Positions 1-17,274 of a stretch of DNA of 64,000 nucleotides are shown here, in pieces (within the stretch, counting starts at the first letter, position 1; each line of letters starts with the position of its first letter). Under the pieces are notes generated by a model, which worked only from the letters and a program-made list of their open reading frames with translations, had not been told where the DNA came from and ran no database searches. The DNA lies in NCBI GenBank assembly GCA_965153455.1, contig OZ234493.1:5208001-5272000 (forward strand), given 5' to 3'. Source of the DNA: Sphagnum compactum (Eukaryota). The position numbers and the translations under genes were made by a program.

Positions 1-1037
1 CTCCAAAACTATCAGTGAATGATGTGAAAGGTCAACTCACACATAGGGAAGGTGTGCATATATATGCAAAAAAGTGGTTGAAGTCTTGTAATTTAGATTT
101 ATTATAGTTGAATGTGGTGTTGCTTGAACTTCTACTACACATATGTCATATCATATTCACATGGGTGAGTTTTCTTACAATTCCCATCTCCTTGTTGAAT
201 CTATACCTCAATGAAAAATAAGTGGGAAATTGTCACCTTGTGAATCTGTTTGAATAATGTAGGTTTACATCATAAGCCCATCATGTTTTGCATCACTATA
301 GTTACATTCTTGAAATATGCATGTTTTAGCTTTTGTAGCAGCAAATGTAAATTAATTAGTTTTCCTTGCAATTAGTGGAGTTACATATGTATATTACCTT
401 GCAAGTAATGGGGTTGCATTTATATCACTACCTTGCAACTAATGTAATAAAAAATGTGTCATTGTAATCAACTAATCTATTCACATGTAACATGAACCTT
501 GTAATTATTTCAAGCGCATATGTAGGAGGCAAGTTGTTGCATGAGTTTAGAACCTGAGCTTAAAGCCTAAAGTTGGAACTTGGGTGGTAAACTGTCTTTT
601 CCCCTAAACACATGCAAGTGAAACCCAAAAATTTAACCACAAAATGAATGTTATATAGGTAAACCTATAAACAAACATGAGGATGAATGTAAGCATTCAT
701 ATTCATTATGGATGAATGATTTTTTTCATTCATCTAATGTATGGATGAAAAAAGTTAATTGAATTTGCATTTTTTATTATATAAAACTTCAATCAAAATT
801 ATGGATGAATGTTTTATTTTATCATTCAATTTTTATCAACGAATTTTTTCCTGCTAGTTTTAATTAACTAGAGTTTCATGAAACACAATTCAATAATATA
901 TGATATAACATTTGTCGAATAATATGTAAATTCCATTATAAACATATTTGATAGTTATGGTGTTAAATGTCAATTTTTTCAATGTTTTAATAATTATCAT
1001 GCTTACATCCACCTTGTGGTTTTTGTTTCAAAATAAT

Positions 1038-1082
<45 letters not shown>
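1038..1082. repeat. (TA)n microsatellite
   Basis: Near-perfect TA dinucleotide run with one CA interruption; explains the YIYIYI spurious ORF at 948-1211. Confidence 0.95.
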
Positions 1083-1085
<3 letters not shown>

Positions 1086-4000
1086 CAAATTGACCCAATT
1101 TCGTTGACGATAATGGGGTTTTTCTTTTCCTCTCCAAAAATGCCACAACTTCCTTCAAACACATTTATAAGCATCGTGGACAACAATGGGGGACTTTTTT
1201 CATTCTTTTAATTTGAGGGTGCCACAACTTTCATCAAATCTAACTAATGTTGTTAACAACGATGGGTTTTGAATGCTTAAGATATTTTTAAACTACTTAT
1301 TGTCATTGATGACAATGGGTTTTTGAAATAAACTAAAATTCAATTTCAAACACCTTAATTAGCTCCTTCAAATAACATATTATCATACATAATAATGGGG
1401 TTTTTCTAATAATAATTCATTTTCAAGGTGCCTTAATTTTTCACATAGTACATATATTATGTTGTTGACAACAATGGGGGGCGGGGGTTAACACTCATCC
1501 CATGACAACCTTTTTTTTAATATTTAACATTGTTGATGAAATGATTTTTTAAACAAAATTTAGAAAATTATTTTGGTCCCATCATCATATTTTCCATTAT
1601 AGTCACATTATCCATCATTATTAAATGACATTCAAGTTTGAAATATTGATACTTGCACATCAAATGAAGATGGATATAAATAAATTTTTATTTATTTATC
1701 TTCCAATCATGGATGAATTTCATATAATGATTTATTTATTTAATCCAATTCATAAATGACATTCATCTATGGACACATTCATCCATGTAGATGGATTAAA
1801 ATTGCAATAAATTTTAAGCTACAAGTTCAAAGCTCCATGCACAAACCATCTTCGCACATGTAATTACATTGTTGGCATACTATGCAATTACCATAGTCAC
1901 ACATATGTTTCCCATGTAGTTGCGTGTAAATGGCATCATGATAATCATAATATCTTCAATTTTAAAAGGTAAATTTCTAAATTATTGTTCACTACCACAT
2001 GTTCACTATTCAACATATAGTCTTTGTTTAATTATCAAATGGATTCACCATGTGGATACATCATAACCAATCCACAATATAATTACAAAACATTTTATTA
2101 TATTGAAATTTTTGTTAAATTACTATCAATGACCATGTGGACACCATTTAATAGATAATCCATGGTTCAATTGTCGGACAAATTTATGGCATGAATATAC
2201 ATCCTAGTTATGCTAAAAATGTATTTATGAAAATATCAATATAGAAATTACTTTTTAAATTATTGTTTATTGCCATGTGTATATCATTTAACAAGTTATC
2301 CAAATTTGGTTATTGAATTGACTTTTGCCATTTGGATACAACCTAGCTAACTATCAACCACCTCATTACATCATACATGTTTACACATTTTAGTTGTAAA
2401 ACCAATCACAAATCACCATACCACATAGGAATATGTCATTAAAGATTGTAGTCATAAAATTAGTTGCAAATGATTGTGCAATGTAAGCATATGTGACTAA
2501 ACATTTTAATGGGCGCAATCACAATCAAATGAACCAATGGTGATGAAGGATTCAAGGATTGCAATCCTTATGTGGTCATTTTCACTTTCTCATAAAAAGG
2601 ACTTTTGGGATGAAATCTTTTGCAATATGTTACCAAAAATACATATAATTTTTTCAGTATATCACATTTTTGTATTAACTTTTCATGAATAACTAAGAAT
2701 TTTTTTTTAAGTGTACACACTCTACCAAATTATGCGTTTCGTTTTGAAAAATTATCTTAATTTCAAATTGTATGAAAATATGTTAATTATGTCAATTATT
2801 TATTTTATCATTTCATAAAATACAACTTTGTTTTAGATTTCATGTACATTACACCCCATTTACATGTGGTAAAAAACTCTTGAAATTTTTAATTATGTTC
2901 AATAGATTTTTAATTTTTAAAAGTTTCAAATTTCACAACTTTCAAATTGTCAGTGTTTTTTGAATGTGGATAATCAATTAACATCATCTCAATTTTTTTC
3001 TCATCAAATTTTTTTTATAAAAAGAGTCTTTAACTTAATAATTTACAGAATTGATTATTTTTTATGCAACTATTGTTCAAATTCAAATGTCTTTTACTAA
3101 AACCAAAACCCAAAATAATTTTTTTTGAATTTTTTTTTGGAATTAATCAACACTCATATTAGTCATTTAGCACAACATTCCATGATTAACATGGCATTAA
3201 AGTGGCACCACAAAAATATATCTAACAATATTACAGTTTTTATTGAGTTTTGGCGGTTGCCCAACGTGTTTTTTGGTTAGGTTGATTGTGACTGCACCCT
3301 AGTTGTAAATGTTAGTTGTAGATGACCAGGCCATGTCAATTGGATGAAAAGTTGGTGTTAGTTATATCTTGATGCAACTATAATTTCAACTTGGTACCAT
3401 GTAATGTTTTTTTCAATTAAAACCTTATGCAACTTGTCTTAGTGAGTTGTGACCAAGGGAATTTGTTGTCACATATGTCATTAACGACTCAAGAATAATC
3501 AATAAATTAGTCATTAATATGCAATTTTTACTGTGATAGTCTTGGACTTGGAAGATTCAAATGTGTGGATATAAGCATGTAATCATACAACACAATTCTT
3601 CAAAAAAATCATGTCAATGGCTTTTGAAAGGGTTGTGACACGCATTATTGTGACATGTTCTATTTTGTTGACATTTATGTATGTAGGTGCTTGGATAAGG
3701 TAACACACAACTATTAGGATTAATTTGAATGTCTCATAGTTCAAACATTTGTAAGCAAGTTTTAGCATAATCTTAGTGTGAACATGGTTCAACACCGTTG
3801 GTTCTTGAAGATATTATGTTGTCAATAGAAATGAAATACTCTTTTTTAAAAAGTTGAATATCCTTCATTATGTGTTGGGTGTTTTGTTCAAAGTTTGGTT
3901 TTGATACATAATGTTAATGATGTTAGGCACATATTCTCTATTATAAAATGCATAGTGCTTTTGATTACATGTGTGCATGTGCTTTCTTAGCAAGATTATT

Positions 4001-5897
4001 GTGACATGTTTTATTTTGTTGACAATGATGAATGTAGATCTTTGGATAGGGTAGCACATAACAAATATTAAAGTTATTTACAATGGATCAAAATCCACAA
4101 CATAATCAAATGAAAACATTTGAAACTAAATCATTTTTTAATCAGTCATTAGCAAGTTACACTAAAATACTAGTCATAAGTTGGGAAATTTCTATAATAA
4201 TATTTATTAAAATCAAGGTGAAAGTTTTAATCTTTAATGTATTTGTCAACTAGAATATAATTATGACTATGAATTGGACAACCCCATGCTAATGTCATGC
4301 ACATTATGTTTCATTCCACCAAAATGTTGAAGTTGTTTTGAAAAATGTTTTAAATCATTTAAATATTTTTATTAGGCTCCAAAAACATGATTTCAAATGT
4401 ATTTTTTTGGCAAAGACAAAGTGAATTTAATTGGCTATTGCCGCACATTTGTGTCACATGTCACATTGCAACCTTCAACATCATCACACATATACAAGAG
4501 GAATGTAAATAGTTTGATTATTTATGGATCCAATACCTAGTTGGATTCCCCAATAATGTTTAAATTGAACAATTCATAGGAACATGACACTTCATATATG
4601 CATCCTTGCAATGGACCCCTCACTTCTCATATCTATTGATGAAATATACCTTAAAACATATAATCATAATAATACCTTCAATGTTATCTTCATCTTTAAC
4701 AATAGCTAGAAAATAAAAATTATGACGAAATCTAGCTCTAGATCAAAGCTTCCTACAACTTATTATGATGTAGTTTTATGAAGGTCTTTCTAGGCTATAG
4801 TTGTGAACAAATTGTTCACAAGAAAACAAAATCAAAGCATGTGGGTGTGCACATTAGATCACCATCTTCACATGTATAAAACCTTGATCACCATATGATT
4901 ATATTCTCACTTCACACTAATCAAATGGACATGAACTAAATATTGTGCAAACAAATAAGGCTCACTCACATTCATGTTCTTGGCACATGGTTGTCTACCT
5001 GATCATGATTCCAACCAACCATCGTACTATATTATTAAATACATAAAATGTGGGCCACATTTATGATTTTTTTTCTTTTTGAAAGTTTTGGTCATATGGT
5101 AAAAAAATTGGTCTAGAAATATGGTCCAAAGGAATACATTTGTTTTGTTTTTGGACAAATTCATCATGTTTGATCACTTTTCCATTCAGATTTCCCAAAA
5201 GAAATTACTTCCAAAAGCTTGATAGGGTACATAATGAAGGTCGCCTTAAATAAAGGTATTGAAGAGATTTAGCCAATATAACCACAAACATCAAAATATT
5301 TGTATTGCAAATTGGAAATTATTTCTTGCTTTTAATTCTTCCTAGATAAGCATTAGCCACATTTTTAAAAAATTACCTACCAACCAATATGCCAAACCCT
5401 TGTGAGAAAAATATTGAAATTGATGTTTAATCATGTTCTTAAGAACCCAAAACTAAGTATACCATCTCTCTATCCAAGTTTTCACTTTCTTCATCTTGGA
5501 GCAACATATAACTCCACTTTTACCATGCCAAAAATTTCCAAGTTCAAAGATAGAGAGCCATGCCAACACTAAGTTGAATGTTGTGATTTTCTCCCTATAA
5601 TAATGTTGTTAGAATATTCAGGTATTACTTCATTCTTGACCACATTTTGCTTCCTTAGAATTAGAAGTTGAAAGGGGAAAGATAGGTGGCAACAATAATA
5701 ATTTATAATATGAGAAATATTGTGTACCCGTTCAAAATAATTGGTCTATCAAAATGCCAAAATGTGTAATACATTTTTTGTGTATAATCTATGTTTATAT
5801 TGTGTATATCTCTTTTCGGAGGGAGGGTGAAAGACAGCGAGTTAATTTTTTTCCCCTTCAGGGAAAGTGAGTGATGAACTTTTGGATTCTCTCACAC

Positions 5898-5963
5898 TGG
5901 ACCACCAACCATTACATCGGGTCGTCTCTTTGGACCACCCGTCGTTACATCGGGTCGTCTCTC
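5898..5963 (+). repeat. 33-bp tandem duplication in the putative 5' leader of the CaaX gene
   Basis: TGGACCACC...TTACATCGGGTCGTCTCT occurs at 5898 and 5931, at the AT-rich to GC-rich transition. Confidence 0.8.
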
Positions 5964-6397
5964 TCCTTCGCTCTGGGTCAGTGTTTCGGTTCTTTCGCAG
6001 GACTCGTCGCAGTGGCTGCCTGGCTGGCTTTCGAGCTGTTGTCAGAGTTCGGTGCGCTAACTCCACGCTCTCTGTCCCTGGCAGTCGCTTCGGGTAGTTG
6101 TCGAGGTTCGTAACGAGCTTCGAAACGCCGCATTTGGTGCTCTGTAGCGTTTTATTTTAGACTTCGGAGATCTGTTTGTCGGCGGAAGGCGAAGGGAACT
6201 TCTTTCTTTGTGTGTGTGTGTTTTGGGCGAGACCGAGGGATGTAAATCGATGAAAGATCGAGGCTTTGAACGCAGAAGGATCCGAATTGTGATATCTCAG
6301 TTGGAAGAGAAGGATTCGTTCTGAAACCCGCCGAGAACACGAACAAGCGGAGGCTTTTGAGAGGAGGTCTTGAGCTAGGATTTGTGCAGTAGTTAGA

Positions 6398-6543
6398 ATG
6401 AATGCGGAGGTGGAGGAGCAGTTTGAGAGATTTCGTAAACAGTCCAATAGAATGCAAGTCTCGGATCATAAGTAGGAGAAGGAGGAAATCCATGTCAGGG
6501 GGTTGGGAGGTGTAATGAGAGCCGTGCAGTGATGGATGTGTGA
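6398..6543 (+). promoter_or_regulatory. Cluster of four upstream ORFs
   Basis: ATG-stop ORFs: 6398-6475 (MNAEVEEQFERFRKQSNRMQVSDHK*), 6492-6515 (MSGGWEV*), 6515-6532 (MRAVQ*), 6532-6543 (MDV*). The last three are linked by TAATG and TGATG stop-start overlaps. Confidence 0.55.
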
Positions 6544-6608
6544 GCCACCGGGGCAGTGGAAAGATTGATGATAACGGGAGGGAGAAGAAACCGGGGGGTG
6601 GACGGGTT

Positions 6609-7159
6609 ACGGCATTTCTTGAGGGTGGACAAAGGATCCTCACGCTGGCGCCTGAAAAAGTTGCGCCCCAGGGGTGCACGAGTTTGTTGTCCTGCTCGAG
6701 TTGTTGTTGCTACAGCTGCTGCTGCTGGCCAGCCCAGAAGGGCTTGCCACCCCTCAAAGTGGCCTCCAACTCAAGAGTAGACGACGGGGGGGATGCTTAC
6801 ACGGTCCCCTCTTCACATGTGCCACTTTCTCCTCCCGTCATTCCTTCTCCTGTAGCTGCTGCTGCAGCAGCAGCAGCAGCATCTGTTGAGCCTCCTTCTG
6901 GCGTCAATGGCCACAGCCAAGTCCCCACTGTCAAGCTCCCAAGAAAGAGTAACCTAAAGCAGTCTTCTTCATTCTTCTCCCATGCAGAAAACGGAGTTAG
7001 GGTTTCAAGTGCAGAAGATCATGTATCAAACTCTGAAGCTGGAGAAGTCTCTGGTGTTGATGTGGCCGTAGACGAATCCGGGGAGAAACGTGAATGTAAA
7101 GTGCAATGGATTGATAACTTTGGCAAAGACTTGATCCAGGTTCATGAGTTTGAACCCAG
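6609..7159 (+). CDS. Exon 1 of an uncharacterised plant protein with SILK-like/RVxF-like motifs and C-terminal CaaX; start codon uncertain (ACG 6609 proposed)
   Basis: Frame open 6519-7159 with no ATG; encodes AFLEGG...GCTSLLSC...PPLKV...KSNLK...KVQWIDNFGKDLIQVHEFEP; donor CCCAG|GTAACA at 7159/7160. The motif order matches the land-plant family I recall as LKSSLKK...KVQW.D..G.EL..IREFEPS...C.C.I[LMQ]. Confidence 0.8.
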
Positions 7160-8050
7160 GTAACAACCACAACCGCAACAAAATACTCTTGTTTTTCTGT
7201 TTCCATCTGATTCTCATGTTCTTCTTGTCACATCTTGCCCCGCTTCAGACACTTCTTTTTAACTTTGTCTCTGTTTTCCTGGATCTCCATCCCTTCATTT
7301 TCATGCTCGTTGCATGAGCTTCAGCTTTACTTCGATCTCAATCCATGCTTTTTTAGCTCAGATGCCAACTGAAATGGAAGTGCCACTTCTTGTTTTTGAG
7401 CCCATATCATTCGGGCAAATCTCTTCTGGATTGGGCACTACTGCTATGATATGCTTTGTTCCTTCTGTTCCGGCATGTACACCTGTGCATGAAAATGAGC
7501 TGGAAGGCAGATTCAATTGTAGATTCTGCATCACAAAGTGTCTAAATGTCTGCAGCTCATGTGGTGACCATCCTTGATGAGAGCTACTCCGAAATCAGAA
7601 CCCCCTTCTTAATCAGTCTACAAGAAATGGAGCCCTGATGCATCTTGCAACACACGTTACAGTCGTTGGACTATTGATTTAGATGCCATTAGTTAGATGC
7701 AGCTATTGGTGTAACTGCAATATAATGAAAATCTTGAGCTGTTTAGATCTTTTGTGACTTGATTTTCAATTGTGTTTTAAGTTGAAGCATTTGTGGTTTG
7801 AACCCTAGAAGCCATGAAAAGCAACTTTTGAAGCTGTGCTTTTCTGTTTTTGGTTCTTGAATCCCTGTTGAATGCATCTCATGTTGAGCTTCATCATGGA
7901 GTCTGAGGCTATCTTCGAAGAAGTTGTGCTGCTCAATCCTTTGCATGAATTTCTGTACTGATACCTCAAGGGTCTGGTCTCGAGTATGTATGAGGGTTTA
8001 TGAATTCAAAAGCTCTAATTCATGTGTGCAATGTGTTGCATGATTATCAG

Positions 8051-8123
8051 TGACTCAGGTGATTCAGAAGATGATGAGGATGACAGGGAACCATTGCAGA
8101 CATGTACATGTGTGATTCAATGA
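8051..8123 (+). CDS. Exon 2 of the same gene (acidic tail plus CaaX)
   Basis: Acceptor TTATCAG| at 8050; the phase-2 join gives ...EFEP-S-DSGDSEDDEDDREPLQTCTCVIQ*, stop TGA 8121-8123. Confidence 0.88.
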
Positions 8124-11100
8124 TGGTGTTGGCCAATGGATCCCCAGGTTTGGTGGATTCAAGCATAGGTGACCCAGATTTCAAGTATATTGGTTGGTGC
8201 AGACCTCTGCTGGCCTCATTTCAACACTGCTGTATGGATTTAATTGACTGCGAGACAATGACCTGAGCACTGTTTCCTATCATGATGTAATTCTCTTGAA
8301 GCTCATGCGATGTTCTTTCATCACTCTGCTCAAGTGCAGGTTTCATCCCTCCACAGAGCCAAATCTTCAGCTTCACCTCTGGAAGTGACAACTGGGTACA
8401 GGATAACTTTTCCACGATTCCAAATTGGAGTCTGTCTATGAGATGCTGTCCTCTTTTCCAATCTCAGGGACCAGCAGACTTCAGGTGCGGTGTGAGTGTG
8501 CATTTTCTACCTGTACCATGCAGAAGGACTTCCAGAAAGCATGTTGGGAACATGCTCAGTTTGGAAAGAGACACCAGGGCTGTGGTGATGATAACTCAGG
8601 ACTTGCAACCAAAAGAGCAATCCAGAAATAGGCACTCTTTGACCCCTGTGATTTCAGCAAACATCAATCCCCAAAAGAGGGGATTATAGGCCAAGAAAAG
8701 TGATGAGTTTGCAATGCAGTTTTGGCATATGGAAATGGCAAATAGAACTGTTGGATGCCATCTCTTTCTTTCTGTGCAAAGCCTTCTTTGCAGTGATACT
8801 GTTGTGGTCCCCATTTGTCGTGAGGTGGGCAACTCTATTTTCTGTGTACTTGAAGGTGAACTTGAGACATGCATGCTTCTGGCATTGCTAATGCAGGTCC
8901 CTTTAGGACTAATGCAAGGCAGAGTTAAGGTTATTAAACATTTTAGCAAGTGGGAGCCCTACAATTCCTCTCTTCTGGAGTTGAAAGTAGCAGAAGTGAT
9001 TAAATTCAGTCAGGATATGCAGTTACCCAGAACTCTTGGTTTCAGTTTCAAAATGCTCAGGTTTTGTGATATGTCCAATCAGGGTCCACATGCTGGCTGG
9101 TTAATTTGTTGCATCAGTTTGCTGGCTCAGTCTTTCTGAGGCACTTGTGCAGTCATGATGTCTGGTTGGTGAGGACCTGGTGTTTACCTGTTTGCTTGAG
9201 ACACATGGGGGTGAACAGAATCTCTTTGTTGGCAGACGGCAGTAAAAAAGTTGAAATTGACGAGCAATTGAGCTTGCCATTGTGGATAAAGTCTATCATT
9301 TCCAGTCTTATGCTTCAGAGGTTGTCAAGCCCAGGTAGAAAAGCAATCTAAAATGAGGGGATGAATGTTTGGGGGAAAAGAAACTCTTTTCTATTGGGTT
9401 CCAGATTCCTAGCTAACCACTGCTAAGCTCTGGTTCTGTTTTTACTAACTACTGATTAACAACCCACTAGATCTTACCTATGTACTGTCCATCTACATGC
9501 ATCAACCTACAATGTAGTAACATATTATCCTACTCACCTACCCGGAGGACCTCTCCTTTTTAGGATAGGTAACCTCTTATCTTACCTACCTACTTAGAGG
9601 TTTCCAAAGATTGAAACCTACCATCAACTCAAGTTTGGACTCATCCACAACTGAGCTATAACAACTCAGTTGAGGTTCATCCTGACTTTAACTCAGTTGG
9701 GTTTATCTATAACTGAGTCATAATGAACTTCCAGTGCATGCTGCACTGGTGTTAGCTCAATCTGGCCCTCTAGAACATGCATTAAGGATAATTTCTTACA
9801 TCTTGAGTCTACCTGCCTGACTTTGGGCTAGCAATGTAAATATAATGGATCATGTGACCCTTAGCACTCAACAGTGCATCATCCATTGGAAACCCCTCAT
9901 GACTCAGTTGTGATTCATTCACACCTAGGTTACCAAGTTTACACATTGGTGACCTATTGTGGAAACCCTCCTATTTCCCTTTCAAACTACTATGTAAAGT
10001 AGTATGTATGTTAGAGCATCTCCACCGTTAGTTGGAAGCACCCCTCAATTGGTAACTTGTCATGCACCACCGCCCCCACCAAAGCATCCAATTGATATAC
10101 TTCCTCCTAGGCTGGGAAGAAACATCTCAATGGCCTCAACATCACATCAAGATATCATGACGAAATTTGATATCATTAAAGGAGTTTGAAAGTGTTTTTT
10201 TATTTTCAATATATTTTTTTTTGAAGTCCAAGCTTGCAAAGCAAGAAGCATTTTCAGAAAAAAAACATTTTCAAATTTTAAAAAAAGATAGTGTGAACTA
10301 ATGTGAGGTGATTATCGGATGATTACACAAGTAGGATTTAGGGTTTTAGTTTGTCGTTGTTTACTTTCTACACAAAGCTGGCGAAAGGCATCTCATTGTT
10401 GTTGTTTTTCCTAGATTATCCATCACCACAAGTGATTTCATGAGGGTAGGTGAGGGAAAGAAGGCTTGTTTGTTGTTTGTGTGTAATGCAATACTTATCT
10501 TTATGGAGCTTCTAATGGAGCAACATTTATGGTGAAACTTCATTAGAAGGAGCAAGGGAAGCTTATGTTTTGGGGATTTAAACAAGCTGAAAATGAGCTA
10601 AATGATCATATTGTTGTAGTGAATATTTTTGAATTAGGTTTTTGTGTTTGTGACTATTGTATTTTCTTCCATTGCGCTCATAGCTGCTCAATGACAATAA
10701 GCAATGTACTTAGGATTTTATATAAGGGGTCGATGCTAAGACATGATGATAAATTCAAGAGATCTGAATTGTAGCAAGTTGGGCATATAGAAAAATATGT
10801 AAGGGATTGGAACTTGGATGTCTTGATGAACATGGAAACCTTTTCTTTAGGTATCCTTAAGTTGGAGCGGATTGTGAAGATGAAAATCAAACCTTAGCTT
10901 GTCCTATTGAAGATGAATTTATAACTTACCTTCTATGCTAGCAAATCTACCCCATACTTTTAGTGATTTTTGAACAAAATTTCATGTTTCTATCTATTTG
11001 ATATGGAGAGTATTTAAGCTGTAAGGGGATGGGAATTCACATCTTCTTTTGTTGCCATATAGGAACTAATTTGATGCATTACATGGTAAAATGGGTTTAA

Positions 11101-12529
11101 CAACTCCATGGATCCAATGAATAATGAAAGGTCTAATCTCTCATAGACTTCAAGAAGATTTGACCCGATGTATGTGGAAGGTGCTAGTGGCATAATAAAA
11201 GGTTGTTGAATGATGTTGAACATGAGTATTCTGAGCATAGACATTGTCAACACCAGAAGCTTATTTACTTTGCTTTTTTAGTTCTTAAAAAAAAGTTTCA
11301 AGATAGTTGATGACATTGGTTGTTGGAAAACAACATATGTATTGTTGTTAGTGTTGTTTTAAACATTGTTTTTTTAGGTTACAACATCATGAGTTATTTG
11401 AGAGTTCATAGAGAGGTGTGCAAGTTTAAACAACGATGCAAAAATGTAGAGAGAAATGAAAAAATGTTCAAAAAGAGGTGTGAGCAGAAAGAAAGGCATG
11501 CAAACAAAAAATTCAACATACATAAAAACATGTAAGCAAAAAACCCGACACTATATAGAAAGGTGTTCAAGCAAAAATCCAACATTGTGCAACCATGAAA
11601 ACATTGAAAACCCAAAAATTGCAAAGCGTTGCATGACCGATTACACATAAAAAGTCACTACTAACAATAATGTAATTCACAAAAATCAAAGGGGTGAAAG
11701 CATGGTAAAGTATACCAAAAAAAAAGTTTAAAAAATACAATAAAAAATGGTCCAATTTTTTACACAAGTATAAGAAATTATATTGAAAATAATTTAAAAT
11801 AACATAATAAAAACATGGTGCTTTTCCTTGAGTTTATAATGAGGTGATTACAAAATTTGAGAAACCTTGGCACAATAAAATAGACAACAAAGATGTTTGA
11901 AAATAACTAGTCAAATTGAGTTTAAACATATTTTTCCATTAGAAGTTTGATGTATCCTACTATAATATTTAAACGTTGAGAACTTACAAATACATTTTAA
12001 AGTTGCATCATGTTGAAAATGGAGAATATTCAATAATTCATTTACTTTCATCTACTTGTACAAGTTCGGACAACCTAAAAAGTACGGGAAAAAAATTACA
12101 ATTTTTAATTTTTAATTTATTTGAATGCATATTAGAAATATGTGATCAATCAACATCATTGTGATAAAATTAAATATTATTCTCATGTTGATCATTAAAT
12201 AAAAAACATTAATACTTTCAATACATTAAAACTTGTTTACAGCTTCTTCTTCTTTTTTGTGAAGGAACAAAAATGGTTTACTTTACCTTGCTAACACCTA
12301 GAAAGCCATTGCACACAATGAAAATTCACTACCTAACTGAAATTTCAAAAAATATATTCCAAATAAAACATCACTAGTTATTTTCTTTGAAAGCCCAAAG
12401 GTAATCCTCAATGCAAAATGTTTATCCAAACTTTCTAATTTTTATTCCATCTCTATAATTAGCAAAATTGAAACCTCATTACATATGAAGATTCCATTTT
12501 TCAAAACAAAACTCAATCTTGTGAATGAT

Positions 12530-13300
12530 CACTTGTGCTTGAAGGATGTCATTAACAATGTTCATATCCCAATGTTTATAAGAATTTTGGATTATGCGAA
12601 AGCAAGATTGCAAACATTAAAACACCGTTCAATTATGCAAACCACTTCTTTTTCTCCCCTTATAGTTCATGAATAGTTTGCACAAATTAAATAATGATGT
12701 CCATTCAATTCAAAGTTCAAGTCATTTCTTGCACCTCGCAACATGTCAAAAATCAAAAGCGACATGTATAGCACATTCATGTGATTGTTGTCACCATTAA
12801 GACCGAAATGACAATGCCATATGCACAAGCTTTGATTTGCAATTCGTTCTAGGATTATACAACAATGTTTATCCTTGTCAATATGTGAGCCTTACTAAAT
12901 AGCTATGCAATTCTTCCAATAATAATGCGTGCATTCCAAAGAGGTGAACATCCTTGGCCGATCTCACAAGTGCATTAATTTGCAATTAGCATTCCAAATC
13001 TTCTTGTGTTGGTTGTTTCAAGTACACATGTTCAAACAACTTTCGAATGGTTTGCATAAATCTTTTTAGACTTTCCATTGTTGTGTTTTCCCCTTGATGA
13101 TACTTTTCATATATTGCATCAGCTGCAATTCCATATTCAAGCATGCAAAGGCAGATGTGCATTTAATTTTTTTAATAAAAGATCCATCTTCCCTAATGCA
13201 TCCTGGCACTGCACAAAGTACCCATCATGTGCAATGACAACTTCAAGCAACTTCCCCAAATAAATTGTCGCTATAAAAGATTGCAAAAAAGTAATTGTGC
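12530..13300 (-). pseudogene. PIF/Harbinger DDE transposase remnant (frameshifts and stops)
   Basis: Minus-strand peptides YFVQCQDALGKM, FEHVYLKQPTQEDLE and LQSCFRIIQNSYKHWDMNIVNDI match plant Harbinger transposase motifs (YFxQRxDAxG, YLRxPTxxD, FGVLQxRFxII) in the correct order. Confidence 0.75.
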
Positions 13301-13508
13301 ATGATGCACACCTCACCAAGTGTTCAATCCCTATAGTTGTTCCATCATTAGCCTAATTTACTTCCTTTATGTTGTTTAGAGACTGATTTGAAATAAGAGG
13401 TTTTGAGCAACCCAATCATCTTCACCATTATCATTAAGTTTTGTGCACAACTACATTAGCTACATGTGACACCAAGCTTCCATCTTGGACCTTGCAAAAA
13501 GATTAATT

Positions 13509-13645
13509 CACTAAAAGAAAAATCCCATTTTTCGACTTGTCTTAGGTGACTAAAAATGTCTTTTGCGACTATTTTTGGTAAAAAATAGTCGCAAAAGACA
13601 TTTTTAGTCGCCTAAGACAAGTCGAAAAATGGGGTTTTTCTTCTA
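13509..13645. repeat. Near-perfect foldback inverted repeat with a CACTA-type left terminus (MITE-like)
   Basis: Arms of ~62 bp around a GGT(A) loop at ~13577-13580 with two internal mismatches; left end CACTAAAAGAAAAA, right end TTTTTCTTCTA (truncated). Confidence 0.85.
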
Positions 13646-14242
13646 AGCACAAATTGTATAAAACAATTAAAATACACAAAACCAAAAGTTCATAGAGGCA
13701 CACACACAAAAATGTTCAATGTCAAAAGAAAGGTGTGGAAAATCATGTAGAAACTCCAAAAAGAGGCACTTATAATTTTTTTGGCAAAAGTTCAAAGAAA
13801 GATGTGCAAGTGTAAAGAGAACATGTTACCTCCAAAGACAAATGTGAAAGCATAAAAAGATGTGCAAAATTAAAAGACTAAAAAAGAAAAATCATTGTGA
13901 GATTCTAAAGGGAACTTGTTGGAGGAACTACAAAATCAAAACAAACAACATACCAACTTTTTATTGAGAATATTAGCGGAAAAGATGAATCAAATAAAGG
14001 CCGCCTACATGTTGTAACCTATACAGTGGCCTACACACAAACTATGCAATGTCATTTGGGTCTATGACAATGGAGATGTTTTAGTACTTTAACCTACCTA
14101 TTAATAGACACTTCAAAATATCATAGGTAAGTAGGTAGGGAATGTCATTAATTCTTACGTAGGTGGGTAAAGTAGATGGTGGTAATGAGGTTAATAGATG
14201 TATGAAAATAACCCATGTTATTAACTAATGGGACATGAATAC

Positions 14243-14668
14243 TAGTGTTGGGTAGTTACTTGTTTTGGCTAGTTAGAGCCACCAATTCTAGTTGGTAAAA
14301 ATCGAACCAAAACTAGGTTTGATTTTTTGGAATTAAAACCAAAACTAGCTTTAAAACCAAATTTGTTTCTAGAACCAAAACCAAACATGGATTAGATTTT
14401 GGAACTAGAACAATAATTTTTTTTGAATCGGGGGTTAGTCAACAATTAACCACCAATTTTAGAGTTGTTTCCTCAAACCAAAATCAAAATTGAGTCTAAT
14501 TTCCAAAACCAAAACTACGACCTAATTTTTTTTTCAAGAACCAATTCAACCAAAACTAGACCTAAGGTCCCATTTTTGGTGGAACTAGAACTAGAGTGTA
14601 GCATTTTTTAAAAAATTAAAACTTGGAACTGAAGATTTTTTATAAAAATCAAAAACTTCCCAACACTA
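14243..14668. mobile_element. hAT-type MITE
   Basis: TIRs TAGTGTTGGG / CCCAACACTA; exact 8-bp TSD ATGAATAC at 14235-14242 and 14669-14676; internal AACCAAAAC/GGAACTAG subrepeats. Confidence 0.85.
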
Positions 14669-17274
14669 ATGAATACCCTACTTATATAACAAGTTTAGCT
14701 AAAATTATATATTATTATTAATTATTTTATTTTAGAGGTGTTGAAATTTTAATTATAAAAATTTCTTCCCAAAGAAAATTGTGAAGGAAAATTAATCGTT
14801 TTTTGAAATAATCTATGTATTGAGTTTTATTTTTCCAAATTAATTCATTACCATGGGCAGCTTTGGCACTTGCGTGCTGAATAATTAGTAAAATTTATTA
14901 TAAAAAATTGGCACTTGAATTTTTAATCCTGAAATGTTTTGCAAATAAATAATAGTTTTAATAAAATCACAACAATTTACAAAACTTTTGAACTGTCCTT
15001 GTGGTTGGATCGTTCACATTTAATATTATTTAGTTGGATAGGGACAAGTTTTGAATTTGAATGTTTTCAAGTGTTACTATAACATTTTGACTTAAAATTT
15101 TGAAAACTTTGGCATTAGGCGCATCTTGGAAAATAAATAAAAAATGTAGAAATCATTTAATTTATGCCAAAGGTCCCAAGTATTATATATTCAACAAAGA
15201 CATGCCGCACCTACTATTTACCTACAATAGAATGGAAAAACATTGTCCCCTATCCATACACCATCCATCTTGTGTGACATGTCATTTCACTTTGGTCACA
15301 TAGGTCCAAACAAATTGAACCTTTCGCTACATTGGGGCCTCTAGAACCTGTTTGATAATTGATTATTTGACACAAAGCAATGCAAGTAATTTCCTATTGT
15401 ATTTATGAAGCAAGGTAGTCTATTTTATTTTGTCATGTGGAAATCTCCCAAACCATGGTGCTTCATCCCATGCTCTGGTATCTTTGGAAAACTCTCAATG
15501 AGTATGGGTGCACCAACTTGGTTTGAGAATGTTTGGAATTACGGTGTGGAAACTATATTTGATTTATTGAACCATTTTTTCTATGAAAATTAAATAAAAT
15601 TGAAACTAAAAATTGTACTAGAATCTGGGGTGCTTTTTGTGTTGTTGGAAAGTCCTTGATGAATTAGATTTAATAGAGTTTATTTCAAAATTTTCAAAGT
15701 TAAGGTGTTGAAGATATTTATTTTTGCGTGAATTTTGTTGTTGGAAATTCAAAAAAAATTCAAAAATTGGGTTTGGAAGCAAAAATCAGTTGAACCTTCA
15801 ATGTGTTCACACTTGGTAAGGGATTTTGCCCTTACTCCTTGAAGAATGGTAGGGAAATTATGTTTATTCATTAAGTGTAAGATCCCTTTAACTCTTAGGG
15901 AGTGGGTGTAAGAACTAAAAACCTCCCCTCTTGTGCACAGAAGGATGTATGTGTGTTTAAAGAGTACAATAATCCTTGAAAAACAAGGTGTTCCTAAAAT
16001 AAATGCTTGCCCAAAAATAGAAGCCAATGGTGCTTACTTTGAGAATGCCCTACTTTCGAGGGCATTAATTTATGTAGAGCATGCCAAAAAATTCTTATAA
16101 TACCTATAGATCCATTAGGTATCAAGGATTAAAAACAAAATTCCTAATGGATCATGCAATTCACTTTTCAATGCCCCTTTGCAAAGGAAAAGTTTTGCAT
16201 GCATGGTAATGTGCCTTCCACATACACTAGAATTTTGCTACCAATTCAATGTTCACAACAATGTTTACTTACACTTGCAATGGGTAAAGACCACATGTGG
16301 GCAACATTCTCCAAATGTGAGGTATTCAACTACCATCTTGTCTTAAGCCCCTTATTTTGGGAATGCCCCCAACTTGGGGCTTTATTCTAGTAAATGTTAA
16401 ACATGCTTAAGAAAGTAAATGTGCTAGGAGTTTTATGCCACCACAACATGACATCACCACACATCCCACCCCCCCACCCTTCTCGTCACCCTTCCCATTC
16501 ACAATCCCAATGGCCTCGTATGCATAACCCGCCTATCATCATGTTATGTCAAATTTGTAACCTACCATACCACCCCCATCTCCATGGAAGCCTTGCAATC
16601 AACATTCCATGGGATGCCCTGCCATAAGCATCACAACAGGGGAAGTTCCTCCCATTTAGGTTTATGTTTTATAGCACCTTTTGTAGCCACGTTTTGTCGT
16701 TTCAATTTTTTTTGTTTTTTTTCATCTTGTTGCACCTTTCATTGTGCAAGTTATTGGTTGAACTTGAATGCTATTAGTGAGTTTGATTGTATAATAGTTT
16801 CAAGTTGTGCAATTTGATTAGTTGCTATCGATTTGGTGTATGTTTTTCTTAAAATAAATATGTTTTTTTTAAAACAAAAATTTGACAATAACATAAATAT
16901 TTGGTAGAATCTCAAAGAAAAATGAAAAGATCATTTAGTTTAAATGGAAGTAGTTCCCATTTCAAGTTTGCATTTAAGGTGTGTGAATGCTTGAAAAAAT
17001 TGAATGGTTTGTTGTAAACAATTTGAAATTTTGGCCACAATGTTGCCAATTAAGGTCACAATCTTTGAAAGGCATTGTGGCGTTGCACAAAATACACCGA
17101 TCCAAGTTCGTGCATTTGAATGTGTGCAAAATCAACAGATCTGAATGTGCACGTCCAAGTATTCCAAGTGTTATAATTTGAATTATAACCTAGGTAATTC
17201 TCTTCTTCCGAATCTATTGCACATCATGGTAAATCATTGATTGTTGTGTATAACATGGGAATTGAGAACGTAGT

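Follow-up and report, generated by a model that had tools for sequence, protein, structure and literature searches.

The main open reading frame (ORF) of the Arabidopsis gene AGAMOUS starts at ACG (Riechmann et al. 1999, as cited in PMC6380273), FCA of the same plant starts at CUG (Simpson et al. 2010, cited at second hand), and non-AUG starts have been described genome-wide in tomato and Arabidopsis (PMC7605272). Reliance on a non-AUG start for the sole product of a gene is rare, and few plant cases have been shown by experiment. Here we analyze a stretch of 64,000 nucleotides (nt) of Sphagnum compactum (contig OZ234493.1, positions 5,208,001 to 5,272,000 of the forward strand; hereafter the window, numbered from its first letter), which carries at positions 6519 to 8123 a transcribed and spliced gene without any ATG in its reading frame. 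A protein, if made from this gene, must begin at a nonstandard start codon, and near-cognate initiation, inferred together with the codon used, is in our estimate (probability of roughly 0.55) the best explanation for protein synthesis from the AUG-less frame.

The gene resembles AGAMOUS in being a plant nuclear gene with a conserved coding region that lacks an AUG start and has a near-cognate ACG in good context. However, the AGAMOUS start was proven by experiment, whereas the Sphagnum gene is known here from sequence and RNA; the families are unrelated, and in Sphagnum two ancestral AUGs appear to have been lost in turn and the mRNA has ten upstream AUGs (uAUGs). FCA and the other plant non-AUG N-terminal extensions have a conserved in-frame region upstream of the annotated AUG and begin at a CUG or ACG codon that has a purine at −3 and G at +4. 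Moss paralogs introduced below (group G2 and loci L022 and L024) fit this layout of an extension plus an internal AUG. The window copy, in contrast, has no downstream AUG, and the product would therefore be its sole form rather than an alternative proteoform.

The available portion of a 2026 survey reports N-terminal extensions of this kind to be little conserved and contains no mention of moss, “Physcomitri,” or Marchantia (PMC13096810), whereas the Sphagnum-type extension is common to deep moss paralogs. Among the papers listed by a literature search on non-AUG initiation and Physcomitrella, none describes, by title and abstract, a moss nuclear gene without an AUG. The mechanism proposed is the already known near-cognate initiation; the case gains value from its comparative series and from the inconsistent public annotation of the gene. 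The series is unusually clean, comprising three Sphagnum paralogs, several species, other mosses, liverworts, and angiosperms, and it displays two AUG losses and one regain. The locus is a test case for near-cognate initiation behind a leader rich in upstream ORFs (uORFs) in a non-seed plant and offers an entry point into a so far unstudied family, found across land plants, whose proteins have a CaaX end.

Gene structure and transcription

The reading frame of the gene (frame A) is shut upstream by the tandem stops TAA (6513 to 6515) and TGA (6516 to 6518). From 6519 it runs open to 7163, where it meets a stop shortly past the exon-intron boundary, and none of its 214 codons encodes Met; it is the longest stop-free frame of window positions 1 to 16000. 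If the 5′-most favored start is taken, the coding part of exon 1 runs from 6609 to 7159. The sole intron (7160 to 8050; GT..AG; 891 nt) has its donor at 7159|7160 (AG|GTAACA) and its acceptor AG at 8049 to 8050, after TATCAG. Exon 2, likewise without Met, encodes SDSGDSEDDEDDREPLQTCTCVIQ* from 8051 to 8123, in agreement with the spliced ortholog contig L003, and comprises an acidic tail, the CaaX box CVIQ (8109 to 8120), and the stop TGA (8121 to 8123). The CaaX consensus consists of a Cys fourth from the C terminus, two mostly aliphatic residues, and X; the window protein has an end of this type (CTCVIQ*, 8103 to 8123) and may be prenylated. The sequence K-V-Q-W (7098 to 7109), which opens the most conserved family motif (CKVQWIDNFG..L.QVHEFEPS), fits by eye the RVxF consensus [RK]-x(0,1)-[VI]-{P}-[FW], through which proteins bind the catalytic subunit of PP1, and is a putative motif of this kind. 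Rechecking of the sequence upheld the initial annotation of the locus, which had described a frame closed by TAA-TGA and free of Met through both exons to 8123, with splice sites and CaaX end intact. Met-free composition by itself is not very unusual, as the family is Met poor and paralog G2 has 1 Met in ∼245 codons; the unusual feature is that its relatives have one or two start Mets and this gene has none of them.

Transcription was assessed by placing raw reads of a stranded poly(A) run (X23) and contigs from three further runs (X1, X12, and X2) on positions 5750 to 8450. As 85 of the 93 X23 reads are ≥99% alike to the window, this run derives from the same species or nearly so. The first mate lies on the minus strand in every X23 read, the pattern of plus-strand RNA, and there were 0 antisense reads in 30 bins. 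Read depth was 0 in 5750 to 5931 and 0.34 in 5932 to 6022 and then ∼2.5 to 15 without a break to 7159; contigs begin at 5977 (X2), 6009 (X1), and 6051 (X12). Read depth and contig starts delimit a 5′ leader (5977 to 6608) that is a single exon without an intron, with its 5′ end at ∼5977 to 6010. The junction 7159|8051 is present in four X23 reads with four start points and in one contig each of X1, X12, and X2, and the sole other joint listed is a 39-nt skip within the intron in one X2 contig. The 3′ untranslated region (from 8124) runs past the analyzed end at 8450, at a depth of 7 to 15.

Neither the X23 reads nor the X1, X12, and X2 contigs splice any upstream ATG into frame A. In particular, the junction 6471|6716 was not seen at an X23 depth of ∼9 to 11, and depth does not dip between 6472 and 6715; at a depth of ∼9 reads, junctions with fewer than three reads would escape listing. 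Metatranscriptome contigs of cDNA type are colinear with genomic contigs over the whole leader in orthologs of the gene (L003 versus L004), and the leader of paralog G2 is colinear too (L008 versus L007 and L012 versus L010), with one intron, after EFEP, in each. The X23 reads contain no letter change or indel over leader or ORF. Splicing was therefore as initially described, on a plus-strand transcript, and the outcomes that could have undone the description did not occur: the reads and colinear contigs lack the junction 6471|6716 to an upstream ATG, stranded poly(A) RNA covers the gene, and neither the reads nor five full-length orthologous loci have ATG at 6609.

Two minor observations concern the transcript data. 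A 185-codon stop-free frame lies antisense to the leader on the minus strand (6152 to 6709), where the stranded library has no antisense reads. At position 8200, in the 3′ untranslated region, six of six X23 reads and the contigs of all three other runs have T where the window has C, which makes the window letter the minority one; this is the only difference in X23.

Probable successive loss of ancestral start codons

By its sequence motifs, the gene is a member of an uncharacterized land-plant family, “like AT1G22790.” Its protein combines a Cys-rich N-terminal part with the motifs KSNLK and CKVQW..EFEPS, followed by an acidic tail and a CaaX end. Relatives were found by a word-based search (8 among 103 candidates), a scan of metagenome contigs (26 loci), and a profile search (119 proteins). 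Source names point to the genus Sphagnum, and relatives occur in Physcomitrium (XP_024384012), Marchantia (MARPO_0020s0145), Riccia, and angiosperms. The Sphagnum loci form three groups: G1, the orthologs of the window gene (L001 to L005 and L021; 93 to 94% identical to the window); G2, a paralog (L006 to L013; 53%); and G3, a second paralog (L014 to L020, L023, and L026). L022 and L024/L025 represent two other mosses, which makes five groups in all. Synonymous divergence (dS) of the core, the part downstream of the internal Met from which bryophyte paralogs are annotated, is 0.39 for G1-G2, 0.81 for G1-G3, and 0.71 for G2-G3, indicating that G1 and G2 are sisters.

In the N-terminal part, the LA(S/P)xK...GC.S..C segment (LAPEKVAPQGCTSLLSC) and KSNLK can be aligned to members from mosses, liverworts, and angiosperms; within it, the Cys-rich segment proper (CTSLLSCSSCCCYSCCCW, 6675 to 6728) aligns with GC.S..C of these relatives. 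The C-terminal motif (R/K)KVQW.D..G..L...EFE.S and the acidic tail are present as CKVQWIDNFGKDLIQVHEFEPS followed by DSGDSEDDEDD. The V, W, D, G, L, and EFE of this motif are invariant in 14 aligned sequences, and the C.C.IQ end occurs in 11 of the 12 that reach the C terminus. The likeness to angiosperm AT1G22790-like proteins thus covers GC.S..C, KSNLK, (R/K)KVQW.D..G..L..(I/V).EFE.S, the acidic tail, and C.C.IQ. Angiosperm members differ in having an AUG start (MLLAVEGG...) and ∼50 further N-terminal residues and in lacking the MAPSAP Met that bryophyte members carry.

No Pfam match was obtained for seven family proteins; the structural search gave no solved relative (best E value of 0.022, a low-complexity chance match), and no publication on AT1G22790 was found by identifier in the literature searched. 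The family name comes from one source, and others use “uncharacterized” or misname the proteins. Several angiosperm homologs are called “Low affinity potassium transport system protein kup” and one “Phosphoribosylformylglycinamidine synthase 2”; for proteins of ∼200 amino acids (aa), with no Pfam match in the two members tested, such names look like propagated misannotations.

The relatives indicate where the family would originally have started. Four of the five angiosperm-type long forms fetched, one of which is from Acorus calamus, begin with MLLAVEGG and the fifth with MLLAVESG, and the start M-L-L-A-V-E-G-G that the initial annotation had given for angiosperms is therefore borne out. All five have an internal MRV(L/S)P(W/L/C) ∼35 to 42 residues in, followed by LA(S/P)xK...GC.SF.CF, and three other vascular-type forms begin at MRVLPW. 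The window sequence GRVTAF...LAPEKVAPQGCTSLLSC aligns to this MRV...GC.SF.CF stretch and also inside an AUG-started protein of the liverwort Riccia. Alignment within AUG-started coding regions indicates that the Cys-rich part is ancestral coding sequence. Group G3 keeps ATG AGA GTT (M-R-V, in MRVC...) directly before the Cys-rich segment, whereas the same site reads GGA-CGG-GTT in G1, with no ATG, and AAG AAA GTT in L022. One of the seven G3 loci covering the N-terminal region has TCG>TAG (L017:1116), giving a 27-codon uORF and leaving only the internal Met for the core.

No in-frame ATG occurs upstream of the Cys-rich part in the window, L003 to L005, G2 (8/8 loci), L022, or L024/L025. In G2 (8/8), L022, and L024/L025, the first in-frame ATG is the conserved Met of DAxM(A/T)PSAP, 3′ of the Cys-rich segment, and this MAPSAP Met is the start chosen in the public models of Sphagnum G2, Physcomitrium, and Marchantia. 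The codon (6801 to 6803) is ACG in the window and in each of the five full-length G1 orthologs, which leaves no AUG in the frame of the window gene. An ATG has been regained at 6678 to 6680 in sister species: C6679T, an ACG>ATG change at a CpG, is present in L001, L002, and X1 and X12 contigs and absent from the window and L003 to L005. One apparent further Met, that of protein P0007 in paralog G2, was rejected as an ATG because it is a GTG call; P0143 reads V there, and the DNA agrees.

Coding-type conservation of the AUG-less region

If the region upstream of codon 6801 is translated, it should show coding-type constraint in frame A. For 6645 to 6800, the ratio of nonsynonymous to synonymous differences per site (pN/pS) in this frame was 0.55 to 0.56 between G1 and G2 (P ≈ 0.03), 0.47 between the window and L022 (P = 0.004), and 0.51 between L006 and L022 (P = 0.013), with P values for the coding-type signal ranging from 0.004 to 0.04. 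The annotated core gave similar values (0.59 to 0.64 in G1-G2 pairs), and the other two frames of 6645 to 6800 gave 0.70 to 1.88 in these pairs. In every lineage, this region remains open in the frame of the core, and shuffled 64-codon stretches of the same composition are stop free in one frame in 8.9% of trials; G3 differs from G1 in this region by a clean 22-codon gap. We take these patterns to mean that the region from at least 6645 is translated, or was until recently, in lineages without an AUG for it.

Within G1, 10 synonymous and 11 nonsynonymous changes were found, where 76% nonsynonymous is expected (P = 0.014, a value that depends on three repeat sites considered below). Nonsynonymous divergence (dN) of the core between the window and L001 or L003 is 0.015 to 0.019 versus a dS of 0.086 to 0.089. 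The coding part of exon 2 differs from L001, L004, and L005 at 0 of 73 bases versus 3.0 to 3.9% in the intron. All ORF indels in G1 are multiples of 3, whereas leader indels are not. No frame-breaking lesion was found in the six G1 sequences, and splicing and expression, which a pseudogene may lose, are both retained.

Candidate start codons

Among plant non-AUG starts, CUG and ACG show the highest enrichment and depend on a purine at −3 and G at +4, CUG being the strongest (PMC7605272). Two codons with this context lie at the 5′ edge of the conserved region, and both had been read correctly in the initial annotation: ACG at 6609 to 6611 (gttACGgc; G at −3 and G at +4), giving 207 aa, and CTG at 6645 to 6647 (acgCTGgc; A at −3 and G at +4), giving 195 aa.

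Several features favor ACG 6609. It lies two codons past the lost M-R-V start, is invariant in the window and L001 to L005, and shows no other letter in the reads. Variable columns among G1 orthologs number 18 in the 220 nt from −261 to −42 relative to the CTG, the last at 6603, and then 0 from −41 to +33 (6604 to 6678) and 4 from −41 to +170 (211 nt) (Fisher P = 0.004); this boundary of variability at 6603/6604 falls just before ACG 6609. The aligned codon in G2 is GTG, and ACG and GTG are each one step from ATG.

CTG 6645 has the wider conservation. CTG GC(G/T) is kept in G1, G2, L022, and L024, with adjoining codons varying synonymously, and it is the only strong near-cognate codon common to all four moss lineages. 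In L022, an in-frame TAA stands at the window's CAA 6630, 4 codons before the CTG, which makes CTG the sole strong near-cognate codon ahead of the Cys-rich segment in that moss. The two codons are not distinguishable as start, and both may be used. ATT 6564 (A at −3 and G at +4) is also a possible start, as the 16 codons upstream of ACG have a low pN/pS in G1-G2 pairs (0.35 to 0.49; P = 0.02 to 0.08). Positions 6571 to 6792 are free of ATG in all frames, which occurs in 3.4% of shuffles and fits a region that ribosomes must scan.

Two further observations were made in this region. A start-promoting hairpin downstream of the candidates was rejected, the fold of 6600 to 6730 being no stabler than shuffles (z = 0.16). 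In L022 (positions 1078 to 1150), a contig of cDNA type, VFIGGG is the homolog of AFLEGG and precedes the in-frame TAA; synonymous-type differences around this stop suggest that it is of recent origin.

Proposed mechanism and alternative explanations

We propose that 40S subunits would scan or reinitiate past the short uORFs, or leak past the last uAUG at 6568, and start at a near-cognate codon in good Kozak context, decoded as Met by initiator tRNA; the favored codons are ACG 6609 and CUG 6645, possibly both. The ancestral M-R-V start would have been lost in the common ancestor of G1 and G2, while remaining in G3 and vascular plants, and the internal Met would then have been lost in G1, leaving the window copy wholly dependent on non-AUG initiation. 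This is the process suggested in the initial annotation, which is thus partly supported: none of the three outcomes that could have overturned it was found; its preference for ACG 6609 over CTG 6645 is not upheld, and it had overlooked the internal Met of the paralogs. More tentatively, and at somewhat less than even odds, non-AUG initiation could be a conserved route to the long Cys-rich form across deep moss paralogs: the N-terminal extension would have been kept in translation from CUG or ACG/GUG after the loss of M-R-V, with the internal AUG yielding a second, short form. The window gene would in that case be a natural knockout of the short form, among very few plant genes without any AUG, and the ATG/ACG changes at 6609 (GTG in G2), 6678, and 6801 would represent start codon turnover in action.

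Several observations weigh against near-cognate initiation at this locus. The ten uAUGs, including that of a 70-codon frame +1 ORF spanning both candidate starts, should strongly depress initiation. The 12 codons between ACG and CTG (6609 to 6644) carry no coding signal (pN/pS of 0.51 to 1.46 in seven pairs and 0.72 to 1.10 in G1-G2 pairs), and comparisons with L024 show none in the N-terminal region (0.91 and 0.76, not significant); the ratio between the window and G3 is 1.05, in an ambiguous alignment. The TAA of L022 and TAG of L017 place in-frame stops inside or just before the N-terminal part, implying that a core started at the internal Met is apparently enough, whereas the window gene lacks this Met. 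Purifying selection between paralogs could partly predate the AUG losses. Without three synonymous sites in a GCT/GCA Ala repeat, the changes within G1 become 7 versus 11 (P = 0.12), and G1 species are only ∼3 to 4% apart at neutral sites, so little divergence that a young pseudogene, too, would be expected to have kept its frame intact. Since bryophyte paralogs keep the internal ATG that is ACG 6801 here, an early-stage pseudogene is a live rival.

Such a young nonfunctional paralog, which would have lost its last AUG through ATG>ACG at 6801 and would still be transcribed and spliced without making protein, too young for frame damage, is in our judgment unlikely. The low neutral divergence and the repeat-dependent selection test suit it, as do the internal Met of all other bryophyte copies, where public models start, the uAUG-laden leader, and the possibility that G2 and G3 cover the function. 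However, the low dN of the core, the invariance of exon 2 coding sequence, and the restriction of ORF indels to multiples of 3 weigh against it, and constraint resumes exactly at 6604; ACG 6801 is common to all six G1 sequences, so that the frame has stayed intact since before the species split, and G2, annotated as coding, has the same kind of uAUG-rich leader. Production of the short core only, from ACG 6801 (143 aa) or GTG 6759, with the N-terminal region as a conserved leader, is quite improbable. In its favor, ACG 6801 stands where the paralogs are annotated to start, 21 nt past the end of the frame +1 uORF (6780), and stops in L022 and L017 show that the N-terminal part can be severed; but this codon has T at −3, the coding pattern of the N-terminal region in frame A equals that of the core, and scanning ribosomes would reach ACG 6609 and CTG 6645 first, both in better context.

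An AUG might instead be supplied from elsewhere. It is improbable that a rare or condition-specific isoform joins an upstream AUG (6398, 5874, or 6532) to the frame by splicing. Frame-keeping GT..AG sites exist, models of this kind have been deposited for S. troendelagicum/jensenii, S. tenellum, S. balticum, S. compactum, and S. fallax, and a junction of fewer than three reads would be unlisted at the X23 depth of ∼9. Against this, neither the reads nor the contigs contain such a joint, the depth profile across 6472 to 6715 has no dip, and depth is 0 at ATG 5874; moreover, the five model types contradict one another, and each cuts all or part of a Cys-rich segment conserved to angiosperms. Among members listed, the calls that contain the region (JGI/IMG or Logan; for example, P0271, P0279, and L003) are all unspliced there, although several do splice at 7159|8051. 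That sequence error, frameshifting, read-through, or RNA editing supplies the AUG is very improbable, and these are largely excluded by the RNA reads. ATG 6568 is one base out of frame and upstream of a run of six G's (6593 to 6598), ATG 6402 and ATG 6492 are in frame A ahead of the tandem stops, and ACG-to-AUG editing is known in plant organelles. Nevertheless, X23 has no indel and no C>T at 6610, 6679, or 6802 (depths of ∼5 to 9), and all six G1 sequences agree in frame from 6568 to 7159. A missing base in the G run joining ATG 6568 was accordingly rejected, as was C-to-U editing of ACG. Read-through from ATG 6402 or ATG 6492 would have to pass two adjacent stops, and a 2-nt deletion at 6510 in L001 and L002 breaks the frame; −1 frameshifting from the frame +1 ORF was rejected because no canonical slippery heptamer was seen by eye and because its ATG is absent from L006 and L008.

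Upstream AUGs and leader

The ten uAUGs lie in a leader of ∼600 nt. The first opens a start-stop mini-uORF, ATGTAA (6240 to 6245), with G at −3, which is unchanged in L001 to L005; in some plant mRNAs, elements of this AUG-stop kind serve a regulatory role by trapping ribosomes. A 25-codon uORF (MNAEVEEQ...) occupies 6398 to 6475, and its ATG is spliced onto the main frame by three public annotations. The uAUG at 6532 opens a 3-codon uORF in strong context. The last, at 6568, is in frame +1 and in weak context (T at −3 and A at +4); its 70-codon ORF (6568 to 6780) overlaps the start of the main frame, and the 70-aa peptide was not found in the protein collection searched. This ATG is kept in all G1 orthologs and, in G2, is absent from L006 and L008 and present in L012.

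Between Sphagnum species, substitutions in the leader (5980 to 6560) amount to 1.9% versus 3.0 to 3.9% in the intron and 4.0 to 4.3% in the upstream flank; the uORF at 6250 to 6324 is identical across orthologs, and 6490 to 6603 is a local hot spot of change. Ahead of the N-terminal region, the string A(A/G)ATTGAT (window 6561 to 6569) is conserved in all three groups, G1, G2, and G3; in G3 it stands in another register relative to the frame, and it may function as RNA or DNA rather than as coding sequence. Two repeats, a (GT)n microsatellite at 6210 to 6221 of the leader and the GCT/GCA Ala run at 6855 to 6881 of the ORF, differ in length between species, the Ala run by whole codons only.

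Public annotations of the gene

Public annotation of the gene in Sphagnum is demonstrably inconsistent. It is annotated in six species with five different N termini. The S. compactum model, which has 0 mismatches to the window in the parts compared, uses ATG 5874 and an intron at 6106 to 6732; its ATG lies where X23 depth is 0. The models of S. troendelagicum/jensenii and S. tenellum use ATG 6398 and an intron at 6472 to 6715, which is the very junction that the initial annotation had named as evidence against itself, and the S. balticum model is a variant of the ATG 6398 type. The S. fallax model uses ATG 6532 (MDV) and an intron at 6540 to 6916, and that of S. magellanicum starts directly at the gained ATG 6678. 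Four of the five N termini therefore rest on introns without RNA support, none of the predicted upstream introns being seen in X23 or in the X1, X12, and X2 contigs. Among the members listed (15 of the 25 in cluster 1), transcript-derived calls covering the region (P0271, P0279, and L003) read it unspliced. With six models, five N termini, and introns unseen in RNA, the forecast that gene finders would mismodel this locus proved correct. Bryophyte paralogs are annotated from the internal Met, which leaves the conserved Cys-rich segment in the “5′ untranslated region.”

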